Positions 882-29,429 of a DNA stretch of 44,673 nt are shown piece by piece. The DNA comes from Alphaproteobacteria bacterium MarineAlpha3_Bin7 (GTDB lineage: Bacteria; Pseudomonadota; Alphaproteobacteria; Rhodospirillales; UBA2165). The stretch's first letter is position 1. Each line of letters begins with the position of its first letter. Under the pieces are notes generated by a model. That model searched no databases. It saw only the letters and a program-made list of their open reading frames with translations, and was not told the DNA's origin. The stretch lies in assembly GCA_002937995.1 (NCBI GenBank), contig PTLG01000003.1, positions 1 through 44,673 of the forward strand. Direction: 5' to 3'. A program made the translations under genes and the position numbers.

Positions 882-1865
882 ATGAAGTTCAAGAAATTAA
901 TCGTATCTCTTGGTGTAGTGTCAGCTTTCTTCTTAAGCACCGCCTCTACGCCGGTATTATCTAGCGAAGTGACTATAAAAGGTGCTAGTTGTTTTCCCAT
1001 AGGAAGTCCTCCTGGCCGCCCATTTGAGGGCGTTGTAAAGGAAATCAATTCTCGAGGTAAGGGAGTTATTCAGGTCAAACTAATGGGGGGAGCACCTGCA
1101 ATTGGCAGTCCTTTCACACTTACTCAGAAGATGTCGAGAGGGGCATACGACATTGTCGGATGTACAGAAGCATACTATGGGAACGTTATTCCTGAAGCTC
1201 CAGTAGTAAGGCTTACCAGTAAACCTGCCGCAGAATTAAGGAAAAATGGTGCTATCGCATATTTTGCTAAGCTTCTAGCGGCAAAGAACATACACTATGT
1301 TGGCCGTCACAATGACTTCGGTCCATTTCACTTGTGGCTCAGCAAGAAAATTGATAAACCAGATCTTACTGGCCTAAACCTCAGAGTAGCTCCAGTTTAT
1401 ACGGCATTTTTCAAAAAACTGGGAGCAACAGTGCAAACGGCACCTATGCCTAAAATATACACTTTGATGGAAAACAATACAGTTCAGGGCTTTGGTTGGC
1501 CAGCTGGTGCTTTTGCTCCACCATGGGTAAAAGTTACAAAATACAAAGTTAACCCAGGTTTCTATACCGCACCATTACAAACACTAGTAAATCTAAAATC
1601 ATGGGAAGCACTTAACAGCAAACAACAGGCAATAATCACCAAGGTAGTCATGGAAAAGGAGGCAGCAACTGAACCAGGAAATGCTTCCTTAGCTGCCCAT
1701 CTTAAGAAAAATGAGGCGATGTTTGCCAAGGGTGGTATGAAAACTATTGAGTTTACTGGAGCTGATAGAGAATATTGGTCAAAAACGGCCATGGACGAAG
1801 CTTGGAGAGAGGTTAAGGAAAGATCTCCAAAGCATGGGCCGGCTCTAGAAAAACTTTTTAGATAA
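882..1865 (+). CDS. dctP: TRAP transporter substrate-binding protein
   Basis: N-terminal signal peptide, DLTGLNLRV motif with conserved Arg, directly upstream of small and large TRAP permeases. Confidence 0.9.
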   Translation: MKFKKLIVSLGVVSAFFLSTASTPVLSSEVTIKGASCFPIGSPPGRPFEGVVKEINSRGKGVIQVKLMGGAPAIGSPFTLTQKMSRGAYDIVGCTEAYYGNVIPEAPVVRLTSKPAAELRKNGAIAYFAKLLAAKNIHYVGRHNDFGPFHLWLSKKIDKPDLTGLNLRVAPVYTAFFKKLGATVQTAPMPKIYTLMENNTVQGFGWPAGAFAPPWVKVTKYKVNPGFYTAPLQTLVNLKSWEALNSKQQAIITKVVMEKEAATEPGNASLAAHLKKNEAMFAKGGMKTIEFTGADREYWSKTAMDEAWREVKERSPKHGPALEKLFR

Positions 1866-1885
1866 GAAAAATAGATTTTATTATT

Positions 1886-1919
1886 AATGGACAGTGTGGG
1901 TTTTGCCACACTGTCCGTT
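1886..1919 (+). other. Intercistronic stem-loop between dctP and dctQ (mRNA stabiliser or partial terminator)
   Basis: Perfect 11-bp stem GGACAGTGTGG(1889-1899)/CCACACTGTCC(1906-1916) with a 6-nt loop. Confidence 0.7.
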
Positions 1920-1945
1920 GATATTGATTATTTTTCTCTTTAGCT

Positions 1946-2482
1946 TTGAAAAAAATGAACACTTTTCTCGATAAGTTGGAGCGTGCATCTATTAATTTAG
2001 CACAATTTTTTGCTGCCCTCGTAGCTATATCCATTGGTTTAGCAGCCATACTGATACCTCTAAACCTCTTAATAATTAAACTCAATATAGGCAGTATGTG
2101 GTGGCTTAATGGTTCCATAGAGTATGCTTTATATTTTGGAGTATTTGGAGGCGCAACCTGGGTTCTCCAACAGGGTGCTCATGTTCGCGTGGATGTAGTT
2201 ACTGCCTCCCTATCTGCAGAGGCAGGAAAACAACTCGATTTTTTCATAAATATTTTTGGTGCCGCTTTATGTGTTTTCCTATGTATTTATGGAGCTCGCG
2301 CTGGAGTAATGGAATTTATTGATGGCACAATACCCGATAAGGATTTAAGAGTTCCGAACTGGATAGTGGTCTCCTTCTTTTCGTTTTCTTTCGCTATGCT
2401 AGCAATAGAATTTTTGTTTCGAATGCGAACTAACAGAGTTCTAGGTACTAAAAGTGATAAAAGTTCCGAGGTAGGGTTTTAA
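1946..2482 (+). CDS. dctQ: TRAP transporter small permease
   Basis: Four hydrophobic segments, GAHVRVDVV motif; start could be ATG at 1955. Confidence 0.9.
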   Translation: MKKMNTFLDKLERASINLAQFFAALVAISIGLAAILIPLNLLIIKLNIGSMWWLNGSIEYALYFGVFGGATWVLQQGAHVRVDVVTASLSAEAGKQLDFFINIFGAALCVFLCIYGARAGVMEFIDGTIPDKDLRVPNWIVVSFFSFSFAMLAIEFLFRMRTNRVLGTKSDKSSEVGF

Positions 2483-2484
2483 TC

Positions 2485-3930
2485 ATGGAATGGTACTTGG
2501 CTCTATTATTAATGCTTGGGACAGTTTGTGTGGCAATGTTTCTGGGTTTGCCCGTTGCCTTGGCTTTTTTTGCTGCAAATGTCTTGGGAACTTTTTTATT
2601 TATTAATGGAGATATTGGATTGGTGTTTATGGCAATGGAGTTCAATAATGCTATAAACTTTGGACTTGCACCTATAGCTCTGTTCTTGCTAATGGGAGAA
2701 ATTTTACTTCATACTGGTGTTGCATTTAAGGCAATAGGAGCCATCGACAGAATCATTTCACGCGTCCCTGGACGCCTTTCTATAGTATCAATTGTCGGGG
2801 GAACTGTATTTTCCTCACTGTCTGGCTCCACCATAGCAAATACAGCTATCCTTGGTTCGGTTTTACTCCCCGATATGATAAAAAGAGGTTACAAACCTAC
2901 TATTGCGATGGGACCAATAATGGCTGTAGGTGGTATAGCCATGCTTATACCACCTTCCGCGCTAGCCGTACTTTTAGCCAGTATAGCAGAACAGTCAGTT
3001 GCCCAGTTACTGATAGCTGGCATTATACCTGGCATCCTTATGGCACTTCTATTTTTTGCATACGTTATAGGTAGATGTGTGATTGATCCGACTTTAGCCC
3101 CCAGCTATACACCCGATGAAAGCTATCTGAATGAACCTATTACTCTAACCATGAACTTTGGAAATAAGGGTATTTTTAATATAACATATAATGGAACCGC
3201 CAAACGAACCATTAACCGCTTATTGCCCTTCTTAATTTATATATTGCCACTTTCAATTATTTTTATTGTTGTTGTAGGGTCTATATTTTTCAAGATAGCA
3301 GCACCGACGGAAGCTGCTGCTCTTGGCTGTATTTCGGCACTAGGCGCTTGCTATTTCTTCAAACTTTTTAATAAAACCGTTAAGATTACCGGCATTGAAG
3401 GGGCTGACTTCTCCTTTAAAGAAATATGGAAAGCTTTAATAGAGACGTCAAAAATCAATGTGATGATCCTATTTATTATTGCTGGCTCTCTCGTTTTTAG
3501 CCAGGCTTTATCAAACTCTGGAGCTACCGACGGATTACTTCAAGCTGTGTCCGACATGAACTTAAATAAGTTAACAATTGTAATCATAATGGTTTTGGTA
3601 CTTTTATTTTTAGGGGCATTCATGGATCAAGTAAGTATGCTTTTACTTACACTACCTTTTTTCCTAATGGGAACTAACTCCTTCCAGGTAGCCTTTGATA
3701 TTGATGTGATATGGCTAATGGTACTAATGCTGATTACAATGGAAATAAGCCTATTAACGCCTCCTTTTGGACTGCTCTTATATGTGATGAAGGGTATAGC
3801 ACCTTTTAATGTAACCATAGGCCAAGTTGTTATTTCAGCAATGCCTTTTATTGCGATTGAAGTTGTGGTCTTAGGGTTATTAATTGCTGTGCCAGAGGTA
3901 GCTATATGGTTACCTTCTATGATCGAATAG
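2485..3930 (+). CDS. dctM: TRAP transporter large permease
   Basis: Motifs GLPVALA, SGSTIAN, MLIPPS, PTEAAALG, LTPPFG; polytopic membrane protein. Confidence 0.93.
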   Translation: MEWYLALLLMLGTVCVAMFLGLPVALAFFAANVLGTFLFINGDIGLVFMAMEFNNAINFGLAPIALFLLMGEILLHTGVAFKAIGAIDRIISRVPGRLSIVSIVGGTVFSSLSGSTIANTAILGSVLLPDMIKRGYKPTIAMGPIMAVGGIAMLIPPSALAVLLASIAEQSVAQLLIAGIIPGILMALLFFAYVIGRCVIDPTLAPSYTPDESYLNEPITLTMNFGNKGIFNITYNGTAKRTINRLLPFLIYILPLSIIFIVVVGSIFFKIAAPTEAAALGCISALGACYFFKLFNKTVKITGIEGADFSFKEIWKALIETSKINVMILFIIAGSLVFSQALSNSGATDGLLQAVSDMNLNKLTIVIIMVLVLLFLGAFMDQVSMLLLTLPFFLMGTNSFQVAFDIDVIWLMVLMLITMEISLLTPPFGLLLYVMKGIAPFNVTIGQVVISAMPFIAIEVVVLGLLIAVPEVAIWLPSMIE

Positions 3931-5895: not shown

Positions 5896-6816
5896 GTGGA
5901 AAAACGTATAAAAATAGCTGGGTATCAGCCTGAAGGATCCATATTAAGCCAGAGCCTAAATATTTTTGGCAAGTCACTAGCTAATGAAACCCCCAACATC
6001 AAAACGGAATTTACTTTTAATATTATGGACATAGGTAAAGCACCCGAAGAAATTATCAAATTAGTATCTGACGGTGTCTACGATGTTGGCTACATATCAA
6101 GTAGCTATTTTGCAAAAAAAATACCGGAACTCTATATCTTTGATATACCTTTTTTGATTAAAAATAGACAACAAGCGTACAATCTGATTGAAAGCCCTTA
6201 CCAAGAACAAATATCAGCCGAAGTTTCAGAAAAGTACAATTTAACGCTTCTTTCCATTTGGGACTATGGGTTTCGCCATTTTTCCAACCACGAATACCCA
6301 ATAAAAACTTTGGCAGATTGTAAAGGATTACTATTTAGAACTCTTCTTAATGATTTGCATCTAAAAATGTTTGCATCGTTAGGTTTCAAAGCAGAAATGC
6401 TACAGGTAAGTGAGTATCTAAGCAGAATAAAAAGTGGGGAAAAAATTGCACAGGAAAATGCTCTCACTAATTTTTATAATTTTCAACTCCATCATTACCA
6501 TCGCTACTTATCTATAACTAATCACCTCCTTGGGGTGGCACTTCTTATATGTAACAAAAATACATTTTCCACACTAACCACTGAACAAAAGAAGCAGTTT
6601 TTTAGTGTGGCCGCCTCGTCTGCTATAACGCAACGAGAATTGGCTATAGCTGAAGAAAAAGTGGTACTGGAAAAATTAAAAAATAATGGTGTGTTAGTTT
6701 ATAATTTATCCGATAATGAGAAAGCTGCCTTTAAAAAAGCGCTTTCTAAAACGGCGTTACCTTTTCGAGACAAAATTGGTACCAAAGCTCTAGAACATCT
6801 CGAAATAACTAACTAG
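5896..6816 (+). CDS. Orphan DctP-like TRAP solute-binding protein without a signal peptide
   Basis: DIPFL, DYGFRHFSN, LADCKGLLFR and AQENAL DctP motifs; N-terminus MEKRIKIAGYQP has no hydrophobic stretch. Confidence 0.8.
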   Translation: MEKRIKIAGYQPEGSILSQSLNIFGKSLANETPNIKTEFTFNIMDIGKAPEEIIKLVSDGVYDVGYISSSYFAKKIPELYIFDIPFLIKNRQQAYNLIESPYQEQISAEVSEKYNLTLLSIWDYGFRHFSNHEYPIKTLADCKGLLFRTLLNDLHLKMFASLGFKAEMLQVSEYLSRIKSGEKIAQENALTNFYNFQLHHYHRYLSITNHLLGVALLICNKNTFSTLTTEQKKQFFSVAASSAITQRELAIAEEKVVLEKLKNNGVLVYNLSDNEKAAFKKALSKTALPFRDKIGTKALEHLEITN

Positions 6817-11169: not shown

Positions 11170-12435
11170 TCATACAGACACAGGTAAAAAAGAAAGCCCC
11201 CTAAATCTTGCCCGACCATGAAATTTCTTCTCTCCGTTCAATTTCAAATTAGGAAATCTATCAACAAATTTTCCTATCGCTTTTTGACCTTCCATTCTAC
11301 CCAAAGTATTTCCCATACAAATATGTTTACCAATTCCAAATGCTATTTGTGGATTAGGTCTCCTGCTGATATCAACCTTTTCTGGATTATTGAAGATTTC
11401 GGGATCTCTATTAGCCGCACCTAAGCAGGTGTGAAGAAATGAACCCCCAGGAATAAGTATTTTCTCCCCTTCTGGCCCAAACTCTGTATCCTCGATTACC
11501 TTCCGATTGCCAATTTGTAGTGGGCTCTGAAATCTTAGAAATTCCTCTGTTGCCGTCTTTATAAGACCTGGTTCATTTCGTAGCAACTCTAACTGATCAG
11601 GAAAATCAAGTAGAGTACCTATTCCATTACTTACTAAACTCGCTGTAGTCTCATGACCAGCATTTAAAAGAAAAATACAATTTTGCACAAGTTCAACAGG
11701 AGTTAACTTTCTTCCATCAACTTCCCCAAAAATAAGTGAAACAAGTACCTCCCCCATTTCCGCACCATATGGAGTTAATCTTCTTTTTGCTATCAAGTCT
11801 TCCAGTAACCCCCCAAATTCTTCAACAGCCTTATGACCCTCATCAATTTTTTCTGGGGATACAATAGGATCCAGAGCACCCAATATGAGTGTAGAGTAGT
11901 GATGCATTTTATTACGGTGCTCTTCGGGTATACCTAACATATCCGCAATAATTTCAGTGGGAAGTGCTAGTCCATAATCTTGCACAACATCAAATTCCCC
12001 CTTTGCCTCAACATTATCGAGTAACTTATCCACTATTCCATCTATCACCGAGTCTAACTCATTCATTTTTTTTGGTGTAAAAGCCTCAGACATAAGTTTC
12101 CTTACAATGGAGTGATAAGGATCATCATTAAAGACTAGACTAGTTGTATGGTGCACATATAAAGGTCCGTCCCCGAACCTAGGCTTAAAATCCTGAGTCT
12201 TATCAGAACTCATGTTAGGCGACTTGAAAGCTTTAACCACATCATCGTATCGGGTCAAAAAGTAAGTGCCATCAGGATTAATATGAACAGGGTCATGTTC
12301 TCTTAATATTTGATAGGTAGGGAATGGGTCGTCCAGGAACCCTTGATCAATGCTTTGGATATCAAACGCTTTTGCTTTTTCGTAATCTGAAAGTTGACTG
12401 TTCATCCGCAACGACCCTTCAGCATTCTCTATCAA
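11170..12435 (-). CDS. Cytochrome P450
   Basis: I-helix AGHETT, K-helix EEFLR, heme motif FGIGKHICMG; alternative start ATG at 12405. Confidence 0.96.
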   Translation of the reverse strand: MIENAEGSLRMNSQLSDYEKAKAFDIQSIDQGFLDDPFPTYQILREHDPVHINPDGTYFLTRYDDVVKAFKSPNMSSDKTQDFKPRFGDGPLYVHHTTSLVFNDDPYHSIVRKLMSEAFTPKKMNELDSVIDGIVDKLLDNVEAKGEFDVVQDYGLALPTEIIADMLGIPEEHRNKMHHYSTLILGALDPIVSPEKIDEGHKAVEEFGGLLEDLIAKRRLTPYGAEMGEVLVSLIFGEVDGRKLTPVELVQNCIFLLNAGHETTASLVSNGIGTLLDFPDQLELLRNEPGLIKTATEEFLRFQSPLQIGNRKVIEDTEFGPEGEKILIPGGSFLHTCLGAANRDPEIFNNPEKVDISRRPNPQIAFGIGKHICMGNTLGRMEGQKAIGKFVDRFPNLKLNGEKKFHGRARFRGLSFLPVSV

Positions 12436-12437
12436 AC

Positions 12438-15400
12438 CTACTCTGCTGGCTCTAACTCTTTGTCACTAGCAATTTGCCTAGAACTAGATTTTTCAAAAAA
12501 CAATTGTGAACTTCCATCCCACAATTCCACCTCTACTAATGAGGAACTAGTGGCCATAGAATGCGCCTGCTTTATTTGACTTCTCTTGGGAGTCAATTGA
12601 TTTAAACACCCGCCGCGATCTACTGAGTTTCCTGGTTCACCCATAGGTTCGTAAGTAGCACACGACTCATAGCCATGAACTAATCCTTTTCGTAACCTTT
12701 GCGTTGGAAAAGCGGCACAAATAACTGCACCTCGGTCATTATAAACTTTAACCAGAGATTTATATTTAATATTTCGTTCTTTGGCATCATCAGAGTTAAT
12801 ACGCAACGTCCAATAAAAGAAACCCTCAACTTCTATCCTGTGATCAATTATGTCATTAATAAAAGCATCTTTGCCATCGCCCTGGCTATGGTAACTAAAC
12901 CTTGCATGCGGTGTTAACAATTGAAGAGGGAACTTTCCTACACGCTCTTTAGCAGACGGTCCCTCCCATGATGGATTATATTTTACTATAGTGGGACGCT
13001 CAGGATCATTGGGGTCAAATCTTTTCAAGGTATTGCAATCAAACTCTATCTTTCCCGACTGCGTCTGCAATCCTCGCAGAAACTCTTCAGTATAATCTGA
13101 AGGTAGAGGGTGTGGCTCGGGGACATCTTTTTTTCTGCCTTCGGCAAACCATCTAAATGAAACTGGCGGCCTCAATTCTTCTTTTAGAGGTGGAACTACA
13201 AAATAGCCTTTTCGCAAAAACTTTTTCCATGAAATATGAAGGGGTAAATCTGAGGCTTCAAACTGCCTTTTTACCCAGTCCAACTCACTCATTCCCTCAG
13301 AAAACAACAAGCCAAGTCCTAACTTTTTTGAAATCTCAAGAAAAATTTGGTAGTCAGACTTTGACTCCCCCAGAGGTTCAATACACTTATGTTGGAAAAC
13401 TACTACCCTGTGGTTAAGTTGGTTTTGACCATGGTGTGTATATCCGCCTATGCCAGCCCACTCACTAATATCTGGCCTCTCTAGATTTGTACAGGCTGGC
13501 AAAATAATATCAGCAAATTTAGCATCACCTTCCATCCAAATTGACTGATTTACAACAAATTCTAATTTATCCGTTCTATACATCTTAACATATCTATTGG
13601 TATCACTCATGGTGCCAAATAGAGAGCTGCCGTACTTATATAACATCTTAACTGGAGCATGCCCCTTTTTGGGGTAAACTATTTTGTCAAATTGGCTCTC
13701 TATTGATTTCCCATTCCATGAATAGCCCTCAGCTTTTCCTTCTAATATAGCTTCAGGCAACTGCAGACGGGGTATTTTCTGTGTACTAGTATTAACTGTG
13801 GGTAGTTGAGGCATGCGCTGGTATAATGCAACAGACAATGCCGTACCCTGAAGGTCGCCAGACATACCACCATCGGCATACCCAGGAAAATAAAAATTGA
13901 GATCAACCGGCGTAGAGCGCTGCATATTCCCTAGATTAATGCCTGGCTTACCAATACCCTGCATAGCCATGAGACAGACCATGGTTCTAGCCCACTGAAT
14001 TCCAGTAGAATTCCTACAAGCACCACCATACCCATTTCCAGCGCCACCAGCGGATAAATAGACTTTTTTATTTCCCCACTCTCTTGCTAATGCCCTAACA
14101 TCCTTTGCTGGAACTCCAGTTTCTACCTCCTGCCACTCAGGTGTTTTTTCTATTCCATCCTCGACCCCAAGTATGTAATCTTTCCATACTTCAAAGCCTT
14201 CTGTTCGCTTGGACACATAGTCCTTATCGTAAAGATCCTCTGTTATCCATATATAGGCAATGGCTAAAGCTAGAGCTGGGTCAGTAGTGGGCTTTGGAGA
14301 GATCCATTTTCCGCCCAACATTTGCGCCGTATCATTATAATGAGGATCAATATGTACAAACTTGATATCAAGCTCTTTCAGCCACTGGCGTCTTATACTC
14401 CCTTCCTGAGATGCATAATTTCCACTTGTTGACTCGGGGTTAGAGGACCAAAAAACAACCATTTCACAGTGCTTAAGAAGGTCCTCCACTGTTCCATAGT
14501 TTTCTGACATACCAACCCTCAAAGAATGTCCCCAATGATGCAAACCACCCCAATACCACCCTTCCCAGCTATCTGGATTATGGTGTACCTCGGTATGTCC
14601 AATTAAATTCATAAATCTAAAATTAGCCGAGAGGTAATAGCCTATGTTTCCCCATGTATGGTGTGAACCATGACTGGAAGCAATAGCGCCTGTACCATAG
14701 TCTCTTTTCATGCGTTTTATTTCACTAGCAACTATATCTAGGGCTTCGTCCCAACTTATTCTCTCGTACCCATCCACACCCCTGTCTTTACAATTTCGCT
14801 CACCGTTTGGATCAAAACCAATCCTTTTCATTGGATAAAGTATTCGGTCCGGAGAATACACAGCCGACTTCCAATTTTGTCCATGCGGGGATAAGCTTGT
14901 TTTTCGAGGTGGAGTGAATTTTTTTCCTCTTGCTTTAATAGTCCATGTACTAGGATCCGTGTCATCAAATTCCATATTTGTGGTCCTTATAATTTTTTCA
15001 TCCTTTACATAGACAAAAATTGGACCGCCATTGGTCATACTTGTGTAACGAATTGACCCATCGTTTAATTTAATTCCGTATTTCCAATTGTAGCACTGGG
15101 TTAACATTATTGTTTGAGCAAACCAGTATGTGAGTTCATCTGGGCCATCCATAGACAAGTTAAACTCCTTTTGAGCGTCTATCTGCTCCTGATAATCTAC
15201 TGGAGGCATAAGTAGTCTGATGGCGAGTTGTTCTGTTTTAAAGGCTAAACAAACGTCAGGAGTTGGGTGGATCCCAGCTTCAGACTTTAATTTTCCTTTG
15301 CCAAAGATATAAAATCTACCTTTAGTATTATCTGATACCTTTATCTGCGCCACAAAACTCTTCTCTTTTAGGCGCCGTCGAAAGCTAGTATTTCTCCAAG

Positions 15401-15452
15401 CCACAAACCTTATTAAGAGGTCTAGACCAAGAAGAATAAAATATAGTCTCAT
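12438..15452 (-). CDS. Molybdopterin (bis-MGD, DMSO reductase family) oxidoreductase, pyrogallol-phloroglucinol transhydroxylase large subunit-like, with an ~130-aa N-terminal extension
   Basis: [60 protein letters not shown] and DRGGCLN match my recollection of Pelobacter AthL; no N-terminal 4Fe-4S Cys motif. Confidence 0.88.
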
Positions 15453-15461
15453 AACGTACCC

Positions 15462-16763
15462 CTATGAGGCAGGCATTATTATTGACCGACACTCACCAAA
15501 ACCAATTCGAGCCTTTCCAGCGCCAGCACACCATGCTCGCATAATTACTTCATCTCCATCTTCCAGAAATGTTCGAGTTTCCCCACTGGGAAACTCAATT
15601 TTTTCTTTTCCTCCCTTACAGGCCTCCAAAATACTGCCATACGTGTCTGAGGTTGTTCCAGAAACCGTGCCACTACCGTACAGATCGCCTGAATTTACGC
15701 TGCAACCATTACTGGTGTGGTGTGTCAACATTTGAAAAATAGTCCAGTACATATCCTTAAAGCCAGGACTACCAATCACGTGAGGGTCTAGATTACTAGC
15801 TCTCATTTTTTCCGTACTAACCGCAACTTCAATATTAATATCAATACCCCCAAAGTCCTGGTGACTGCTTGAGTTGAGATATGGAAGTGGCATTGGATCG
15901 CCATCTGGCCGCTCAAATACTTTGGTCCGAAATGGCGCTAGAGCTTCCAAAGTAACGACCCAAGGGGATATTATGGAACTAAAATTTTTTGCCATGAATG
16001 GACCTAACGGCTGATATTCCCAGGTTTGGATATCTCGAGCAGACCAGTCATTTAATATACAAAGCCCAAAGATATGGTTTTCGACTTCTCCAATATCTAT
16101 ACTGGTACCCAGTTTAGTTGAGGATCCCACAAAAATCCCCAGCTCTGTCTCGTAATCAAGGCGTTTGCATGGACCAAACTCTGGAACCTCGGCGTCTGGA
16201 GGCTTAAGCTGGCCTTTAGGTCTGATAGTCTGCTCACCACTTACCCTTATTGAAGAAGTTCGGCCATGATAGGCGATGGGTACATATTTGTAATTTGGAA
16301 GTAATGGATTATCTGGGCGAAACATACTTCCCACATTAGTAGCATGATTTATTGAAGAGTAAAAATCAGTAAAATCACCTATACTGGCTGGCAATCCCAT
16401 CTCTGCCTCCTGCATAGAAACCAGACAAGAACTAGCTTCCTCTTGAGGACCACCTAATTTTAATAGTGCTGATACATTTGCTCTAAACTCTGACCAATCC
16501 ACTGGACCCAGATCCATAAAAGAATTTAGGGTTGAAGATTTGCATGCTTCTACCCCAACGCCAGATAACAATCCAATATCTGCTGCCTTGGAAATATCTA
16601 ATATAAAATTGCCTATACCGACACCGCACCTAAATTGCTCTTTTTCATTTGCTCTGAAAACACCGAGCGGGAGGTTTTGTATAGGAAAATCTGTACTATC
16701 CTCGTTAGCCGAGTCTACCCAGCTTTTAAGGTTTACGTCGTGTGTTGAGTTTAAATCTATCAT
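15462..16763 (-). CDS. fahA: Fumarylacetoacetase
   Basis: DFPIQNLPLGVF, DFTDFYSSINHATNVG, YHGRTSS, LDYETE, NDWSARDIQ; start ATG at 16763, 1 bp after the hmgA stop. Confidence 0.95.
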   Translation of the reverse strand: MIDLNSTHDVNLKSWVDSANEDSTDFPIQNLPLGVFRANEKEQFRCGVGIGNFILDISKAADIGLLSGVGVEACKSSTLNSFMDLGPVDWSEFRANVSALLKLGGPQEEASSCLVSMQEAEMGLPASIGDFTDFYSSINHATNVGSMFRPDNPLLPNYKYVPIAYHGRTSSIRVSGEQTIRPKGQLKPPDAEVPEFGPCKRLDYETELGIFVGSSTKLGTSIDIGEVENHIFGLCILNDWSARDIQTWEYQPLGPFMAKNFSSIISPWVVTLEALAPFRTKVFERPDGDPMPLPYLNSSSHQDFGGIDINIEVAVSTEKMRASNLDPHVIGSPGFKDMYWTIFQMLTHHTSNGCSVNSGDLYGSGTVSGTTSDTYGSILEACKGGKEKIEFPSGETRTFLEDGDEVIMRAWCAGAGKARIGFGECRSIIMPAS

Positions 16764-16764
16764 T

Positions 16765-18075
16765 TTAATCCATACTTTCGTTAAAGTGTTTTTTAAGCCC
16801 TTGCCAACATTTAAAATATTCAGCCTGTAGACAGGGCGTCTGCATGGCAAATTCTGTTAGTCTATAAACGTAACGGGTCTCAAACATAAATGCCATTGAA
16901 CCATCAATATATACTGGCTCTAAATCAGCTATACTAGCAGCTTCAAAAACGTCCGCATCATTTCCATGAGGGGACATACTATTGTGAAGACTGCTGCCAC
17001 CAGGAACAAATCCCTCTTTTCGGCCATCATATTCGCCCCTGATTAGACCCATAAACTCACTCATAATATTTCTGTGATACCAAGGAGGCCGATAGGTATT
17101 ATTAGCAACTATCCAACGAGGTGGAAATATTACGAAATCTACATTGGCGACCCCCATTGTATTACTCTGGGATGTTAGTACGGTATAGACACTTGGGTCT
17201 ATATGATCGAAACTAATTGACCCAACCGCATTAAAGTTTGCTAGGTCATATTTGTAAGGTGCAAAATTTCCATGCCAGGCAACTACGTCCAGAGGAATAT
17301 GATTAATTTCCGCCTGCCATATGTTACCTCCAAATTTAGAAATTAACTTAAAGTCACCCTCCTTGTCTTCATACCTTGCCACCGGATACAAAAAATCGCG
17401 AGGGTTAGCTAACCCATTGGAACCTATTGGTCCCAAGTCCGGCAGGCGCATGGCCGAGCCATAATTTTCTAATACATACCCCCGCGATGGGCCATCAGGG
17501 AGTTTTACCTGAAATTTAACACCTCTGGGAATAACTGCTATCTCGTTCGGATTCACCTCAAGAAGACCCATCTCTGTGTAAAGCTGAAGTGCTCCCTGTT
17601 GAGGCACAAGTAACATTTCTCCATCCGCATTATAAAAATATTTATCTTCCATAGAACTATTTGCTGCGTAAATATGTATGGCAAGTCCCGCCATCCCGAC
17701 TTCACCTGCTCCCATCATTGTAACAAGACCGGAGATGAAGTCTGTTTTGTCATCAGGTATGGGTAGCGGATCCCAGCGCATTTGGTTCGGATTCGGCGGA
17801 ACATCGTTAAACGGAGCCCCCTTAATCAAACTTTTAGATAATTGCTTAAACGGCTTATGCTTAACAGAGGGCCTTATCCTATAAAACCAGGTTCTTAAAT
17901 TATGGTCCCTGGGCGCTGTAAAAGCTGTGCCGCTAAATTGCTCAGCATAAAGACCATATGGAACCTGTTGAGGCGAATTTCTGCCCTTAGGCAAAGCACC
18001 AGGCAACGCCTCTGTAGCAAACTCGTTCCCAAACCCACTCTGATATTGAGTAGTTACTGACACGGAAGTATCCAT
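16765..18075 (-). CDS. hmgA: Homogentisate 1,2-dioxygenase
   Basis: [47 protein letters not shown] and HNSMSPHG (Fe ligands). Confidence 0.97.
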
Positions 18076-18105
18076 AATCTACATCCTCAATACTTACTAT
18101 TTAAT

Positions 18106-18127
18106 AATAGTTTCATTTGAAACTATT
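18106..18127. promoter_or_regulatory. Operator palindrome, probably bound by the adjacent MarR regulator
   Basis: AATAGTTTCA-TT-TGAAACTATT, a perfect 10-2-10 inverted repeat in the 78-bp hmgA/marR divergent gap. Confidence 0.75.
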
Positions 18128-18153
18128 TACAATTATTATATAGTAAATCAAAT

Positions 18154-18624
18154 ATGTCTACATCTGAAAAGCATACCATTATACTGGATGATTTTATACC
18201 ATACAGGTTGGCTATCCTTGCGAAAGCCGTGGGGACCAGCCTATCCAAAACTTACGAGAGCCAAGTTGGTATAACCAATCAGCAATGGCGAACACTATTT
18301 TCAATAGCGCGCAAAGCTAATTGTTCAGCATCATATGTTGTAACTCATGCTGCGCTGGACAAGGTTCAAGTAAGCCGGGCTCTTACGGGATTAATTGATA
18401 TAGGTCTTGTGGTCCGCAAATATGACAACTTGGACAGAAGAAATTCCGTACTTAACTTAACAGTAGAGGGATGGAAAACTTACAGGGAAATAGCACTAAA
18501 AGCTGAAAAATTTGAGAAAAAACTGTTAGAATCACTCAACCAAGAAGAGACCCAATTTTTGAACATTATCGTGAACAAATTAATGATAAGAACACAAGAA
18601 TTAGAGATTTTAGCCAAAAAGTAG
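18154..18624 (+). CDS. MarR family transcriptional regulator (likely hmg operon regulator)
   Basis: LDDFIPYRLAIL, LDKVQVSRAL HTH, DRRNSVLNLT wing; divergent from hmgA. Confidence 0.92.
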   Translation: MSTSEKHTIILDDFIPYRLAILAKAVGTSLSKTYESQVGITNQQWRTLFSIARKANCSASYVVTHAALDKVQVSRALTGLIDIGLVVRKYDNLDRRNSVLNLTVEGWKTYREIALKAEKFEKKLLESLNQEETQFLNIIVNKLMIRTQELEILAKK

Positions 18625-24205: not shown

Positions 24206-25939
24206 CTAGCTCTCTGGTATACCTGCCCGGCGCAATCCTTCTATCATTTTAACTTTTAAATTTTGATTAGGAAAATTATAACTTTGATCCACACGGCTCA
24301 CAGATGTCTTGTTATCGAGAGTTAAAAGTTTACTGGCGATTTTCTCAGCCTCACCAATATCTCCGAGCTCTACCAAAATAGCTATTACCATTATGTGGCT
24401 AGTATCCCAACTAGGATTCATCAGTAAAGAGCTCTTGCAGTATTCTAAAGCTTTATCCAATTCCCCTACTTCGTAATAAATTAGACCAAGAATATTATAA
24501 AATGCAAACAAAAGAGGGTCCCTCGGACTTACTCTTATGGTTTTTTCTACGCTTTCTTTAGCTTTTTGAAGATCTCCGTTTCCATAAGTAAAGCTCATTG
24601 CAAGGAAACCGTTCCAGTGGCTCATATTTGGACTGATCCTTATAACCCGCTCGCAGCTTAAAATACCGAGTTCAGGATCTTCGCTAGTAATAGTTAAAAC
24701 AAAACCACAAAGTAGAAGAACCTGAGGGTCCTCCGTTTTGGTACCAAGAGCTCTTATAGCAAATTGACTAGCCTTTTCCCTATCATTTTCGGTATAGCCT
24801 TCCCAACCTCGACTAGCCCTAATTTGATATCCCCAAGCTGTATAAGCTAGTGCCTTTGCATAATCTGGTGCAGCCTCAACTGCTTTATGCAACAAGTCTA
24901 GAGCCATTTTATTTTGACCTGGATCAAAAGAATAAATTCCAGGCAAAGATTGCAAAAACAAATCGTAGGCATCCAAGTTATCTGGCGGTTTGCTTTTTGC
25001 CCTCTCTATCTCAGCACTAATCAAATTAGGCTCAATCGCACCCAAAACAGAATCGGTAATCTCATCCTGAAGATCAAATATATCCTCAAGTTCTCTATCG
25101 TATTTTTCAGCCCAAATATGATTTCCTGACAATCCTTCTAGAAGTTGGGCATTAATTCGAACCCTATTACCCGCCTTTCTAATACTACCCTCAAGCACAT
25201 ATCTGCAATTAAGCTCGTCAGCTACTTGCCTAATATCTGGCGATTGGCCTTTATAGGTAAACGAAGAGTTTCGAGCTATTACATTGAGCCACCGCAAATG
25301 GGAAAGAGCTGTAATTATGTCTTCCGTAATACCATCAGAAAAATATTCCTGGTCACTATCACCACTCATATTGTCAAATGGTAAAACTGCAATAGATGGT
25401 TTTTCATGAGAAGTAAGTGATGTTTCCTCAATTTTCTCAGTAGTAAGGGCCTTAATTCGAACGGCATAGGCTTGAACAGGTTCGGACACATTTTTTACTA
25501 CTTGTAGACCTAAGTCTTGATACTCAGCATCTATACGGTTTTTTACTTGGTTGTAAACATCCCCAGAGATACAGATGCCTCCAGGTTCAGACAATCCTTC
25601 TAATCGTGCCGCGATATTTATTCCCTCTCCGTGAATATCTCTGCCATCGTCAACTATATCACCCAGATTTACGGCCATCCGAAACTTTAAAATATTATTC
25701 GAGAGCTTATTTTGAAGTTCAATACCAGTCTCCAAAGCCTTTTGGATCGTTTTAAACTCTGCGAGAAAACCATCGCCAGTGAACTTGACAATGCGCCCTT
25801 CATTAATAGTTACCGTCGGCTCAATAATATCATCCCTTGCCTTACTCCAAGCACCAACAGTTCCATCAGTATCCACTTCCATAAGTTTGGTGTAATCTTC
25901 GATATCAGAAATTAGTACGGCAGCTAATCGATGTTCCAT
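24206..25939 (-). CDS. Class III adenylate/guanylate cyclase + TolB-N-like + TPR protein (paralog 1)
   Basis: RLAAVLISD, KFTGDG, GEGINIAARLE; KPSIAVLPFDNMSGD...EYFSDGITEDII; helical TPR-like C-terminus. Confidence 0.92.
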   Translation of the reverse strand: MEHRLAAVLISDIEDYTKLMEVDTDGTVGAWSKARDDIIEPTVTINEGRIVKFTGDGFLAEFKTIQKALETGIELQNKLSNNILKFRMAVNLGDIVDDGRDIHGEGINIAARLEGLSEPGGICISGDVYNQVKNRIDAEYQDLGLQVVKNVSEPVQAYAVRIKALTTEKIEETSLTSHEKPSIAVLPFDNMSGDSDQEYFSDGITEDIITALSHLRWLNVIARNSSFTYKGQSPDIRQVADELNCRYVLEGSIRKAGNRVRINAQLLEGLSGNHIWAEKYDRELEDIFDLQDEITDSVLGAIEPNLISAEIERAKSKPPDNLDAYDLFLQSLPGIYSFDPGQNKMALDLLHKAVEAAPDYAKALAYTAWGYQIRASRGWEGYTENDREKASQFAIRALGTKTEDPQVLLLCGFVLTITSEDPELGILSCERVIRISPNMSHWNGFLAMSFTYGNGDLQKAKESVEKTIRVSPRDPLLFAFYNILGLIYYEVGELDKALEYCKSSLLMNPSWDTSHIMVIAILVELGDIGEAEKIASKLLTLDNKTSVSRVDQSYNFPNQNLKVKMIEGLRRAGIPES

Positions 25940-25987
25940 TTACTCACCACTATTTAGCGAAAAAATATACCCAATTAAGAGACATGT

Positions 25988-27712
25988 TCATTCTAAACCA
26001 ATCTCTTTCAACGCATCTAGATATTTTTTCTTATCAGCATTATCAGAAAAAAGCAGCTGACTGCCTAGCAACTCCAAGGTCAAATCGGGGTATGTAATTG
26101 TCAGCGCCTCCAAGGATAATTTTGCTTTATCTTGCTCCCCACTCTTAAAATAACTTATAATTAACAATCCCCACCCAAAAGGGTTTAAATCAAACTCACT
26201 AAATTCTCCAAACACCCTCTCAAAATGCTCAACTGCTTCAGAATATTTTTCTAGCATACAATAAATTGCATTAAGAACTAGGGCACTTCGCCTATCAAGA
26301 GGATTCACCTTTAATGCATTAATCGCTCTATCTATAGCTATTTTACTTTTTCCTACAAAAACAGAGAGCATTGCATAAGTAATATCTGCATCTGGAACGC
26401 CTTCACAGCTGCCCAGTTTTTCCTCCATTATTCTATTGGCTTCCTCATAAGCGCCTTTTATCATTTTGCCGATGCAAACTCCAAAATATGCATCATAGCA
26501 TTGGGGATTAATACTTAGCGCTTTTTCCCCACTAGTTATAGCTTCATCAGCTAATTTTTCTCTATCCTGTTTGTTAGAAATATCATGCCAAGCTCTTGCA
26601 CCCTTTACTCTCCCAATTTCCGAATACGCTATTGCGCAATTCGAATCTATTTCAAGGGCCTTCTCAAATAGCCTTAATGCTCTTAAATAGGTTCGAGGGT
26701 TTGGTGGATAAGCAAATCTGCGCCCTTTACGCACGTAATCCTCCGCTTCTTTTCGTTCCCCCGCATCAACCCCCTTATCTATGCTAGAAGATGAAAACTC
26801 TACATTAAGCTGTTGAGCGATTTTTTCCGAAATTTCTGCCTGAAGATCAAAGATATTTTCCAATTTCCCATCAAAGCGTTCAGCCCACCTATGACTATTA
26901 TCCTCAGCATAAATTAACTGAGCTGTAATTCTGACACTATCCCCTGCCTTTCTTACACTTCCCTCAAGAACATGATTTACATTCAATTGTTTTGCCACAT
27001 CTCTTATGTCTGGAGATTTTCCTTTATAAGCAAAGGTAGAGTTTCTCGCTATCACTCGTAAGTCTTTTGAACGAGATAATTCAGTAATAATGTCCTCTAC
27101 AATTCCATCCGTGAAATATTCTTGTTCTTTGTCACCACTCATATTATCAAAAGGTAAAACTGCAATGGAGGGTTTTTCCTCAGGAGTTAATGCCTCTACT
27201 ATCCCAGGACTATCCTCTAGACTTTTAAATTTTACAGAATAGGCCTGTATAGGTTGAGTAACATTTTTTACCTCCTGGGGCCCCAGATCTTCGTACTTTG
27301 CATCAACACGGTTTTTAACCTGATTATAAACATCTCCAGAAATCACAATGCCTCCAGGTGCCGCAACCTCCTCCAAGCGCGCTGCAATATTTATTCCCTC
27401 CCCATGAATATCACGGCCATCGTCTATAATATCACCCATGTTTATAGCCATTCGGAACTCTAAAGGATTATTTTTGAGTTTATTTTGGAGGTCGATAGCA
27501 CTCTGTAACGCTTGCTGCACTGTATTAAATTCAGCGAGAAATCCGTCTCCAGTAAACTTCACTACCCGTCCGTCAACATCTTCCACTATCGGTTCGATCA
27601 CAGAGTCTCGCGCATTACTCCATGCTGCTACTGTACCTTCCGTATCTTCTTCCATACGTTTGGTGTAATCAACGACGTCGGAGATTAGTACCGCGGCTAA
27701 TCGATGTTCCAA
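25988..27712 (-). CDS. Class III adenylate/guanylate cyclase + TolB-N-like + TPR protein (paralog 2)
   Basis: Same motifs as paralog 1; TTG at 27712 aligns with the paralog start and follows GGAGG (ORF track uses 27718). Confidence 0.92.
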   Translation of the reverse strand: MEHRLAAVLISDVVDYTKRMEEDTEGTVAAWSNARDSVIEPIVEDVDGRVVKFTGDGFLAEFNTVQQALQSAIDLQNKLKNNPLEFRMAINMGDIIDDGRDIHGEGINIAARLEEVAAPGGIVISGDVYNQVKNRVDAKYEDLGPQEVKNVTQPIQAYSVKFKSLEDSPGIVEALTPEEKPSIAVLPFDNMSGDKEQEYFTDGIVEDIITELSRSKDLRVIARNSTFAYKGKSPDIRDVAKQLNVNHVLEGSVRKAGDSVRITAQLIYAEDNSHRWAERFDGKLENIFDLQAEISEKIAQQLNVEFSSSSIDKGVDAGERKEAEDYVRKGRRFAYPPNPRTYLRALRLFEKALEIDSNCAIAYSEIGRVKGARAWHDISNKQDREKLADEAITSGEKALSINPQCYDAYFGVCIGKMIKGAYEEANRIMEEKLGSCEGVPDADITYAMLSVFVGKSKIAIDRAINALKVNPLDRRSALVLNAIYCMLEKYSEAVEHFERVFGEFSEFDLNPFGWGLLIISYFKSGEQDKAKLSLEALTITYPDLTLELLGSQLLFSDNADKKKYLDALKEIGLE

Positions 27713-27972
27713 AACCACCTCCAGAACTCATTAAAATATTATCGATGCACTCAAGCTCAAAAGCTTAGAACCTTAAAAATTGTATATAAAAATTGTGATG
27801 GAATAAAGGTATAGGGGTCATTCAACGGCTCAGTATAATAAATAAAAGTGTAATAATTTGAGAGGAGACTTTAGTAGGTGTTTGATCTAAGGTAAAACTT
27901 AAATTACTTATTATAGTCAATTAGTTACTTACTATAGTAATCTGTTATGTACACATTAAAGGGCGTTATTAA

Positions 27973-29024: not shown

Positions 29025-29429
29025 TTACCATCTCCAGCCCTGTAATTTCTCCAGCTTTCTCATACGTTCCTCACTTAATTGATCTCTCGCCAATCGTTGA
29101 CGTTCTACCCATCGATACAATTTATATCCATCGGGAGCTGTGTGTTTTACAGGCACATCTGCGTCTCCATAGGCCGCCACATATTCCTCTAGATATTCAA
29201 ACCCTTCATCCCAGCTTGTATCTTTTGGGCTCCAGGTCCAACCCTTAAGTTGATCCAACTGCCTCCTTTTTTGTAGATCCATTGAATTTTTCTGCAAGCG
29301 CTGTCGCTCAACCCATCTCCCTAATTGAAATCCATCTGGACAGACGTAATTCGCAGAAAGATCAGCATTACCATTGGCAATGATGTATTCTTCCATGTAT
29401 TCAAAACCAACTTCCCAGGAATCATCCAA
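29025..29429 (-). CDS. Stand-alone tandem helicase-associated (HA) domain protein
   Basis: Two repeats of W..GFEY.EEY....G.AD.......PDG..L.RWVERQR....L....L..L.GW.W; TTG start with GGAGG RBS. Confidence 0.85.
   Translation of the reverse strand: MDDSWEVGFEYMEEYIIANGNADLSANYVCPDGFQLGRWVERQRLQKNSMDLQKRRQLDQLKGWTWSPKDTSWDEGFEYLEEYVAAYGDADVPVKHTAPDGYKLYRWVERQRLARDQLSEERMRKLEKLQGWRW

Follow-up and report, generated by a model that had tools for sequence, protein, structure and literature searches.

We analyzed the 44,673-nucleotide sequence PTLG01000003.1 (the window), which is one whole contig (C195) of the metagenome-assembled genome (MAG) Alphaproteobacteria bacterium MarineAlpha3_Bin7 (2.58 Mb, 92.5% complete), and focused on a run of four minus-strand genes for homogentisate 1,2-dioxygenase (HmgA), fumarylacetoacetase (FahA), a molybdoenzyme, and a cytochrome P450, which is divergent from marR. 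An initial annotation had described this run with intergenic gaps of 1, 9, and 2 bp and a strong palindrome in the marR-hmgA gap, and had proposed that the P450 and the molybdoenzyme form an upper route to homogentisate that is independent of HppD. All five genes and their arrangement were confirmed at the locus, with the last gap being 2 bp only if the P450 starts at TTG 12435; ATG 12405 is near most homolog N termini in an alignment, and the gap is then 32 bp. The run appears to be a conserved, regulated operon and a candidate peripheral homogentisate route with an unusual enzyme set. Its features are as follows:

18154..18624, plus strand: marR, MarR-family regulator (PF12802/PF01047), divergent from the operon
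18106..18127, no strand: palindrome with 10-bp perfect arms and a 2-bp spacer, likely MarR operator
16765..18075, minus strand: hmgA, homogentisate 1,2-dioxygenase (TIGR01015, 686.8 versus a cut-off of 510.75)
15462..16763, minus strand: fahA, fumarylacetoacetase, start ATG 16763 (TIGR01266, 525.2 versus a cut-off of 375.3)
12438..15452, minus strand: alpha subunit of an AthL/RehL-family bis-molybdopterin guanine dinucleotide (bis-MGD) molybdoenzyme, 1004 aa (PF21423, PF00384, PF01568), no adjacent iron-sulfur (Fe-S) beta gene
15078..15452, minus strand: SCP2-fold N-terminal domain of the molybdoenzyme, about residues 1 to 125 (predicted structure and alignment)
11170..12405, minus strand: cytochrome P450 (PF00067 only), likely start ATG 12405, alternative start TTG 12435

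Homogentisate is the usual breakdown product of tyrosine. Judged by sequence, the homogentisate lower pathway is present, comprising HmgA and FahA equivalogs and a MaiA encoded elsewhere in the genome. The initial annotation had noted that neither hppD nor maiA lies in the window and that copies elsewhere might explain the use of hmgA. A copy of maiA is present on another contig (C20; TIGR01262 over cut-off). For hppD, nothing in the 92.5%-complete genome reached the TIGR01263 cut-off (best score, 38.8 bits). Scans for promoters and terminators yielded no more hits than shuffled sequence did (16 versus 18.4; 5 versus 6.5).

The molybdoenzyme and the P450

Residues 134 to 982 of the molybdoenzyme match AthL of Pelobacter (4v4c) at an E value of 6.7e-302, and a comparison by fold gave a Foldseek E value of 3e-96 and a TM score of 0.90 on the target at 52% identity. 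The equivalents of AthL Ser175, His144, Asp174, Trp176, Tyr404, and Tyr560 are kept; we take Ser175 to be the molybdenum ligand and the His, Asp, and Tyr positions to be catalytic in AthL. Arg153, Trp354, and Cys557, which presumably line the pyrogallol pocket of AthL, are replaced by Tyr273, Tyr475, and Ile668, and these are invariant in the clade of operon enzymes described below. The enzyme is transhydroxylase-like, as first annotated. Its family extends beyond the enzyme of an anaerobic fermenter: it also contains a resorcinol hydroxylase, and long forms occur in Burkholderia, Ensifer, Paraburkholderia, and Salipiger. The source genome contains mobA for bis-MGD, and genomes of the marine family hold two to eight transhydroxylase-like genes each. 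A supposed relative, the 3-hydroxypyridine dehydrogenase HpdA, was dropped because it is a xanthine-oxidase family member.

In trees of the alpha subunits examined (70 of ~120 matches, disregarding the row for G420, a wrong-frame open reading frame), the operon molybdoenzymes form one clade (SH-like support of 98 to 99; SH-aLRT of 100). A beta gene follows none of the 14 members with a visible downstream gene; instead, the P450 follows directly in 12, and in 2 it comes after a UbiD gene. By comparison, 42 of 53 other alpha paralogs have a beta gene directly downstream, while 3 are at a contig edge and 8 have no beta gene. Fifteen positions that are conserved in the beta-linked clades differ in the operon clade. 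Every operon genome holds one to four beta genes elsewhere. The source genome encodes three long-form alpha subunits (on C195, on C24, and one split over C205/C157) and a single beta gene, which lies behind the C157 copy; the C24 copy ends at the contig edge. Within the operon clade, the nonsynonymous substitution rate is far below the synonymous rate (0.02 to 0.13 versus 0.9 to saturated), and constraint equals that on beta-linked paralogs in six of six matched genome pairs. Therefore, the beta-less clade is under purifying selection. A molybdoenzyme gene convergent with the cluster in G007 belongs to a different, beta-linked clade and was left out of the counts.

The N-terminal ~125 residues have an SCP2 fold in the predicted structure (pLDDT, a per-residue model confidence, of 81; Foldseek match to UbiJ-SCP2 with an E value of 6e-6; VIA Z of 11.8 to human SCP2), while no Pfam SCP2 match was found in the sequence. 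This domain is common to all 27 long-form paralogs aligned. The initial annotation mentioned neither the missing beta subunit nor this domain. On plasmids of Burkholderia, Ensifer, Paraburkholderia, and Salipiger (L218-L221), long-form alpha and beta genes cluster with genes for VOC and FAH-family proteins, TetR, and outer-membrane transporters, and an acyl-CoA synthetase is annotated in two of these loci; they may represent a second, uncharacterized aromatic pathway.

The source genome encodes no other P450; this one has at most 421 aa and carries no fused reductase. Its heme Cys373, the ExxR residues E298/R301, and the acid-alcohol pair E262/T263 (AGHET) are invariant in 27 aligned rows. The closest solved P450, a vitamin D3 hydroxylase (E value of 3e-64), is too distant to give the substrate, and its close relatives are from MAGs labeled Rhodospirillaceae or Rhodospirillales. 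No redox partner is encoded in the operon, and the source genome has no match to a putidaredoxin-reductase-type protein (Reductase_C); possible electron donors in the genome are an ISC-type ferredoxin and two reductase-ferredoxin fusion proteins.

Conservation of the operon and its probable operator

Among 36 relatives in the family, 32 have the P450, 31 have hmgA, and 34 have AthL-like genes. Of the 30 genomes with both the P450 and hmgA, 26 have the two no more than 8 kb apart, and the other four have them on different contigs. The molybdoenzyme insertion is present in 16 genomes of five genera, including the source, and fahA is directly upstream of it in 14 of these. The gene order is the same in genomes of 2.0 to 4.5 Mb in the five genera. 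The P450 is retained where fahA is lost (G024, with a 23-bp gap) and where marR is lost, and the downstream neighbors of the P450 vary while it stays in the block. The P450, and not the molybdoenzyme, is the constant partner of hmgA. An hppD match passed the cut-off in 1 of the 16 molybdoenzyme-operon genomes and in 10 of the 17 hmgA genomes that lack the insertion, counting a partial match below cut-off in G030 as no hppD; these genomes are kin and represent few independent events. Quick trees in which the molybdoenzyme-bearing genomes were kept as one group were compatible with the P450 (p-AU of 0.54) and were borderline rejected by HmgA (p-AU of 0.04); consequently, one gain is indistinguishable from repeated loss or module exchange.

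Several other genes recur near the block. A UbiD-family decarboxylase gene lies between those for the molybdoenzyme and the P450 in G002 and G014 (L057:5624-6979 and L058:7751-9106) and another near a dehydroxylase-like gene in G003 (L260:3612-5303). At L059, L144, and related g12/g13 loci, hmgA or the P450 gene is flanked by a gene for a beta-keto acid cleavage enzyme (PF05853), of which contig C250 of the source genome carries a close copy; this enzyme could handle acetoacetate-type products. Recurring neighbors of 286 aa were rejected as one family because they match in length by chance (MaoC, IclR, cupin, SBF).

The palindrome has the core TAGTTnCA-nn-TGAAACTA and overlaps sigma-70-like boxes of both directions. 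Its arm length was matched by 8 of 2,000 dinucleotide shuffles of the 78-bp marR-hmgA gap. Close MarR orthologs (E value of ≤1.4e-29) are encoded in 26 of the 36 family genomes, and exactly these 26 have the motif when searched genome-wide. The motif is present at 21 of 21 hmgA loci with marR versus 0 of 6 without it. The source genome contains one strong copy only, and each of the 10 family genomes that have hppD but no molybdoenzyme insertion likewise has a single site, at hmgA. We found no site of operator strength before 63 other AthL-like alpha genes. Together, these sequence patterns make it very likely that the palindrome is the operator of MarR.

Beyond the family, the motif is matched exactly in 28 of 400 further alphaproteobacterial genomes, compared with 2 for a reversed control. 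At these 28 loci, one per genome (L303-L330), the adjoining gene is hppD (18 loci), HmgA-like (4), fahA/FAH family (2), VOC (2), or unassigned (2), and in most cases a MarR gene is on the other side of the motif. It thus serves as a marker of tyrosine/homogentisate loci throughout the class. In some relatives, the operator also precedes a VOC-family gene (L257:6047-6586) and a glutathione S-transferase gene (L252:5829-6653), and a VOC gene beside the motif recurs in two other families (L320, L325).

In five relatives (G002, G014, G003, G025, and G035), further operator sites precede operons for 750-aa bis-MGD enzymes (L249-L251, L253, L255, and L258-L262), in which the adjacent 4Fe-4S genes encode ~110 aa and the site often overlaps a TTGACA box. 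The nearest solved structure to the 750-aa enzymes is acetylene hydratase (2e7z; E value of 3.6e-92), and the catechol dehydroxylases are described as its sister group (PMC7028382). Atlas neighbors of these catechol-dehydroxylase-like enzymes score 0.98 and are mostly from Actinomycetota. Among the upstream regions of dehydroxylase-like genes examined (30 of 53 matches), sites of at least 28 bits precede 8 of 10 close-clade genes versus 0 of 20 distant ones; the two close-clade exceptions are in G024, which lacks this MarR, and one of the G036 genes.

Possible routes into homogentisate

The conserved run with hmgA-fahA, the missing beta gene, and an operator that elsewhere mostly precedes hppD argue that the P450 and the molybdoenzyme likely are an alternative entry for phenolic acids. 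Specifically, we propose that the operon feeds homogentisate independently of HppD, via hydroxylation of hydroxyphenylacetates, and assign this a probability of about 0.5. The P450 would introduce, in an O2-dependent reaction with electrons supplied in trans, a hydroxyl para to the existing one, most likely converting 3-hydroxyphenylacetate to homogentisate. For the molybdoenzyme, we propose the addition or relocation of a ring hydroxyl on a related phenylacetate. The oxygen would come from water, as in the action of RehL on resorcinol, and an Fe-S beta subunit encoded behind a paralog would most likely be borrowed. HmgA and FahA would cleave the resulting homogentisate, with MaiA from the other contig completing the lower pathway. 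In larger relatives, the same regulator may add the catechol-dehydroxylase-like enzymes, which would convert 3,4-dihydroxy acids to the 3-hydroxy substrate; a Gordonibacter strain is reported to convert 3,4-dihydroxyphenylacetate to m-hydroxyphenylacetate (PMC7028382).

Several observations weigh against this proposal. The molybdoenzyme insertion is absent from 17 hmgA genomes. P450 orthologs are found in 31 of the 400 genomes across the class, and none of the 20 wide loci fetched has hmgA nearby, while one has fahA. In G035, hmgA-fahA is cleanly deleted (L053:4728-4829, L263:1-55), with ~11 hmgA codons remaining and joined up to the molybdoenzyme start, and operator, molybdoenzyme, and P450 are retained; neither hmgA nor fahA was found in this single 82%-complete MAG, which has a contig break at the operator. 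In G006 (80% complete), the molybdoenzyme-P450 pair is beside an IclR gene, and no hmgA was found. A gatB or EamA gene is also kept beside the block in most loci; therefore, part of the conservation is plain synteny. A search of the source genome detected no catechol-dehydroxylase-like genes. The source genome does encode flavoprotein hydroxylases of the MhpA subfamily and PRK06126 (both over cut-off), which could feed HmgA. Finally, two metatranscriptome runs, with no neighboring stretch as a control, gave 11 short contig pieces, of which 10 are on the four genes and touch each of them, and none spans a junction by 31 bases. The upper route as first proposed is partly supported, by the conserved linkage, the lack of hppD in 15 of 16 molybdoenzyme-operon genomes, and the motif at hppD, hmgA, and fahA loci; the constant linkage extends to the P450 alone and, for the P450, to the family alone.

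The G035 and G006 loci also speak for a real, if doubtful, alternative in which the molybdoenzyme and the P450 are an independent module acting on another phenolic or lipophilic aromatic, using the MarR promoter for a product that HmgA does not cleave. The tree comparison, in which the grouping of molybdoenzyme-bearing genomes fits the P450 and is borderline rejected by HmgA, an SCP2 fold that suggests a hydrophobic ligand, and an operator-like site before the P450 in G157, where no fahA was found, are in agreement with such a module. However, the P450 stays beside hmgA in lineages without the molybdoenzyme, the operator is a motif of tyrosine/homogentisate loci across the class, and the G035 case is the one incomplete MAG described above.

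A broader scenario, which we consider unlikely, is that a beta-less, SCP2-capped molybdenum transhydroxylase isomerizes homoprotocatechuate to homogentisate by moving a ring hydroxyl. It would work alongside the P450, which might accept its electrons, and in relatives alongside marine catechol dehydroxylases, all within a regulon that has taken the place of HppD. If this were true, marine bacteria would have coupled chemistry of anaerobes straight to a central pathway that depends on O2. The molybdoenzyme as a beta-free and redox-neutral transhydroxylase that moves the 4-hydroxyl of 3,4-dihydroxyphenylacetate to C6 via a 2,4,5-trihydroxy co-substrate, yielding homogentisate, with the P450 supplying the catechol or the co-substrate, is in our estimate quite improbable. 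The contrast in beta genes between the operon clade (0/14) and the other paralogs (42/53), the 15 diverged positions, the kept AthL catalytic positions, and the unchanged selection would fit it, as would the 3,4-dihydroxyphenylacetate 6-hydroxylase activity of the fungal P450 PhacB (as cited in PMC9338888). Against it, beta genes are present elsewhere in every operon genome, so a beta subunit could be borrowed; eight other paralogs also lack an adjacent beta gene, and the equivalents of Arg153, Trp354, and Cys557 are changed. Moreover, Pelobacter AthL keeps its beta subunit despite a redox-neutral reaction.

It is very unlikely that unrelated genes were chained by genome compaction and retained by ordinary synteny. 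The gatB and EamA genes beside the block and the variable P450 neighbors outside the family would be expected from this, but the order is constant across the range of genome sizes and the five genera, the P450 keeps its place although the genes downstream of it change, and the regulator also targets other aromatic-modifying molybdoenzymes at distant loci. Extremely improbable is a direct transfer of hydroxylation electrons from the molybdoenzyme to the P450 heme, with the P450 replacing beta and the molybdoenzyme replacing ferredoxin and reductase: the P450 does hold the position of the beta gene at 12 of 14 loci and has neither a redox partner in the operon nor a Reductase_C match in the genome, but it occurs without the molybdoenzyme clade in 17 hmgA genomes and across the class, the ferredoxin and the two fusion proteins are possible donors, and electrons from phenol hydroxylation probably have too high a potential for the reduction of a P450.

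Transhydroxylase-like genes are currently annotated by likeness to one fermenter enzyme. The operon and its operator point to a candidate substrate class, tyrosine-related hydroxyphenylacetates, for the molybdoenzyme clade, an orphan alphaproteobacterial P450 family, and the marine catechol-dehydroxylase-like enzymes. If the proposed HppD-independent entry is correct, genome surveys with hppD as their marker of entry into homogentisate overlook a route for phenolic dissolved organic matter, and the beta-less alpha subunit provides a direct handle on the role of the Fe-S subunit in this enzyme family.

Elsewhere in the window, a set of TRAP transporter genes and, standing alone, a second DctP gene (882-3930 and 5896-6816) are located ~4 to 10 kb from the operon, and no operator was found there. 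Two tandem tetratricopeptide repeat (TPR) proteins of ~577 aa, one with a weak match to an adenylate/guanylate cyclase domain, are encoded at 24206-27718, and a small protein consisting of two helicase-associated (HA, PF03457) repeats at 29025-29429.

Comparison with known systems

A literature search in which subscription papers were mostly outside reach turned up no account of the hmgA-fahA-molybdoenzyme-P450 operon, an AthL clade without beta genes, or the class-wide MarR-hppD operator motif. The molybdoenzyme resembles AthL/BthL (PgtL), the pyrogallol-phloroglucinol transhydroxylase of Pelobacter acidigallici, in fold, the Ser ligand, and the His, Asp, Trp, and Tyr positions, but has no linked beta gene, has an extra SCP2-fold domain and three changed pocket residues, and sits with O2-dependent enzymes. 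Compared by description only, RehLS of Aromatoleum anaerobium and DbhLS of Thauera aromatica, which we take to be a 3,5-dihydroxybenzoate hydroxylase, belong to the same family, but are two-subunit enzymes of anaerobic nitrate reducers with products other than homogentisate. RehLS hydroxylates resorcinol without O2 and feeds ring cleavage (PMC10084136), and RhL and PgtL form one family of Ser-ligated hydroxylases that includes resorcinol hydroxylase (PMC10100899). Homologs of pgthAB are reported across SAR116 (10.64898/2026.07.17.739263).

In the regulon of the relatives, the distal enzymes are similar to Dadh, Hcdh, and Dodh of Eggerthella and Gordonibacter in their closeness to acetylene hydratase and their small 4Fe-4S partner (PMC7028382), whereas the operon molybdoenzyme belongs to a separate transhydroxylase clade. 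MarR control of homogentisate genes has a counterpart in HmgS, the MarR-family regulator predicted for hmgAB in Alteromonadales (PMC5343134), which is known from three gammaproteobacterial genomes and was compared by description only.

Peripheral hydroxylases that feed homogentisate have precedents. The 3-hydroxyphenylacetate 6-hydroxylase MhaAB is encoded beside hmgABC in Pseudomonas putida U and Paraburkholderia xenovorans LB400 and feeds homogentisate (mhaAB adjoins hmgA in LB400; PMC3053370), but is a flavoprotein, unlike the P450 and the molybdoenzyme of the operon. P450-fed homogentisate routes are already known: OhpA (CYP116B) of Cupriavidus pinatubonensis JMP134 converts 2-hydroxyphenylacetate to homogentisate without HppD (PMC8449657), which parallels the role proposed here for the operon P450. 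However, OhpA is a self-sufficient reductase fusion encoded in its own ohp operon, while the operon P450 is a bare heme domain without an FMN/2Fe-2S reductase, encoded inside an hmgA operon.

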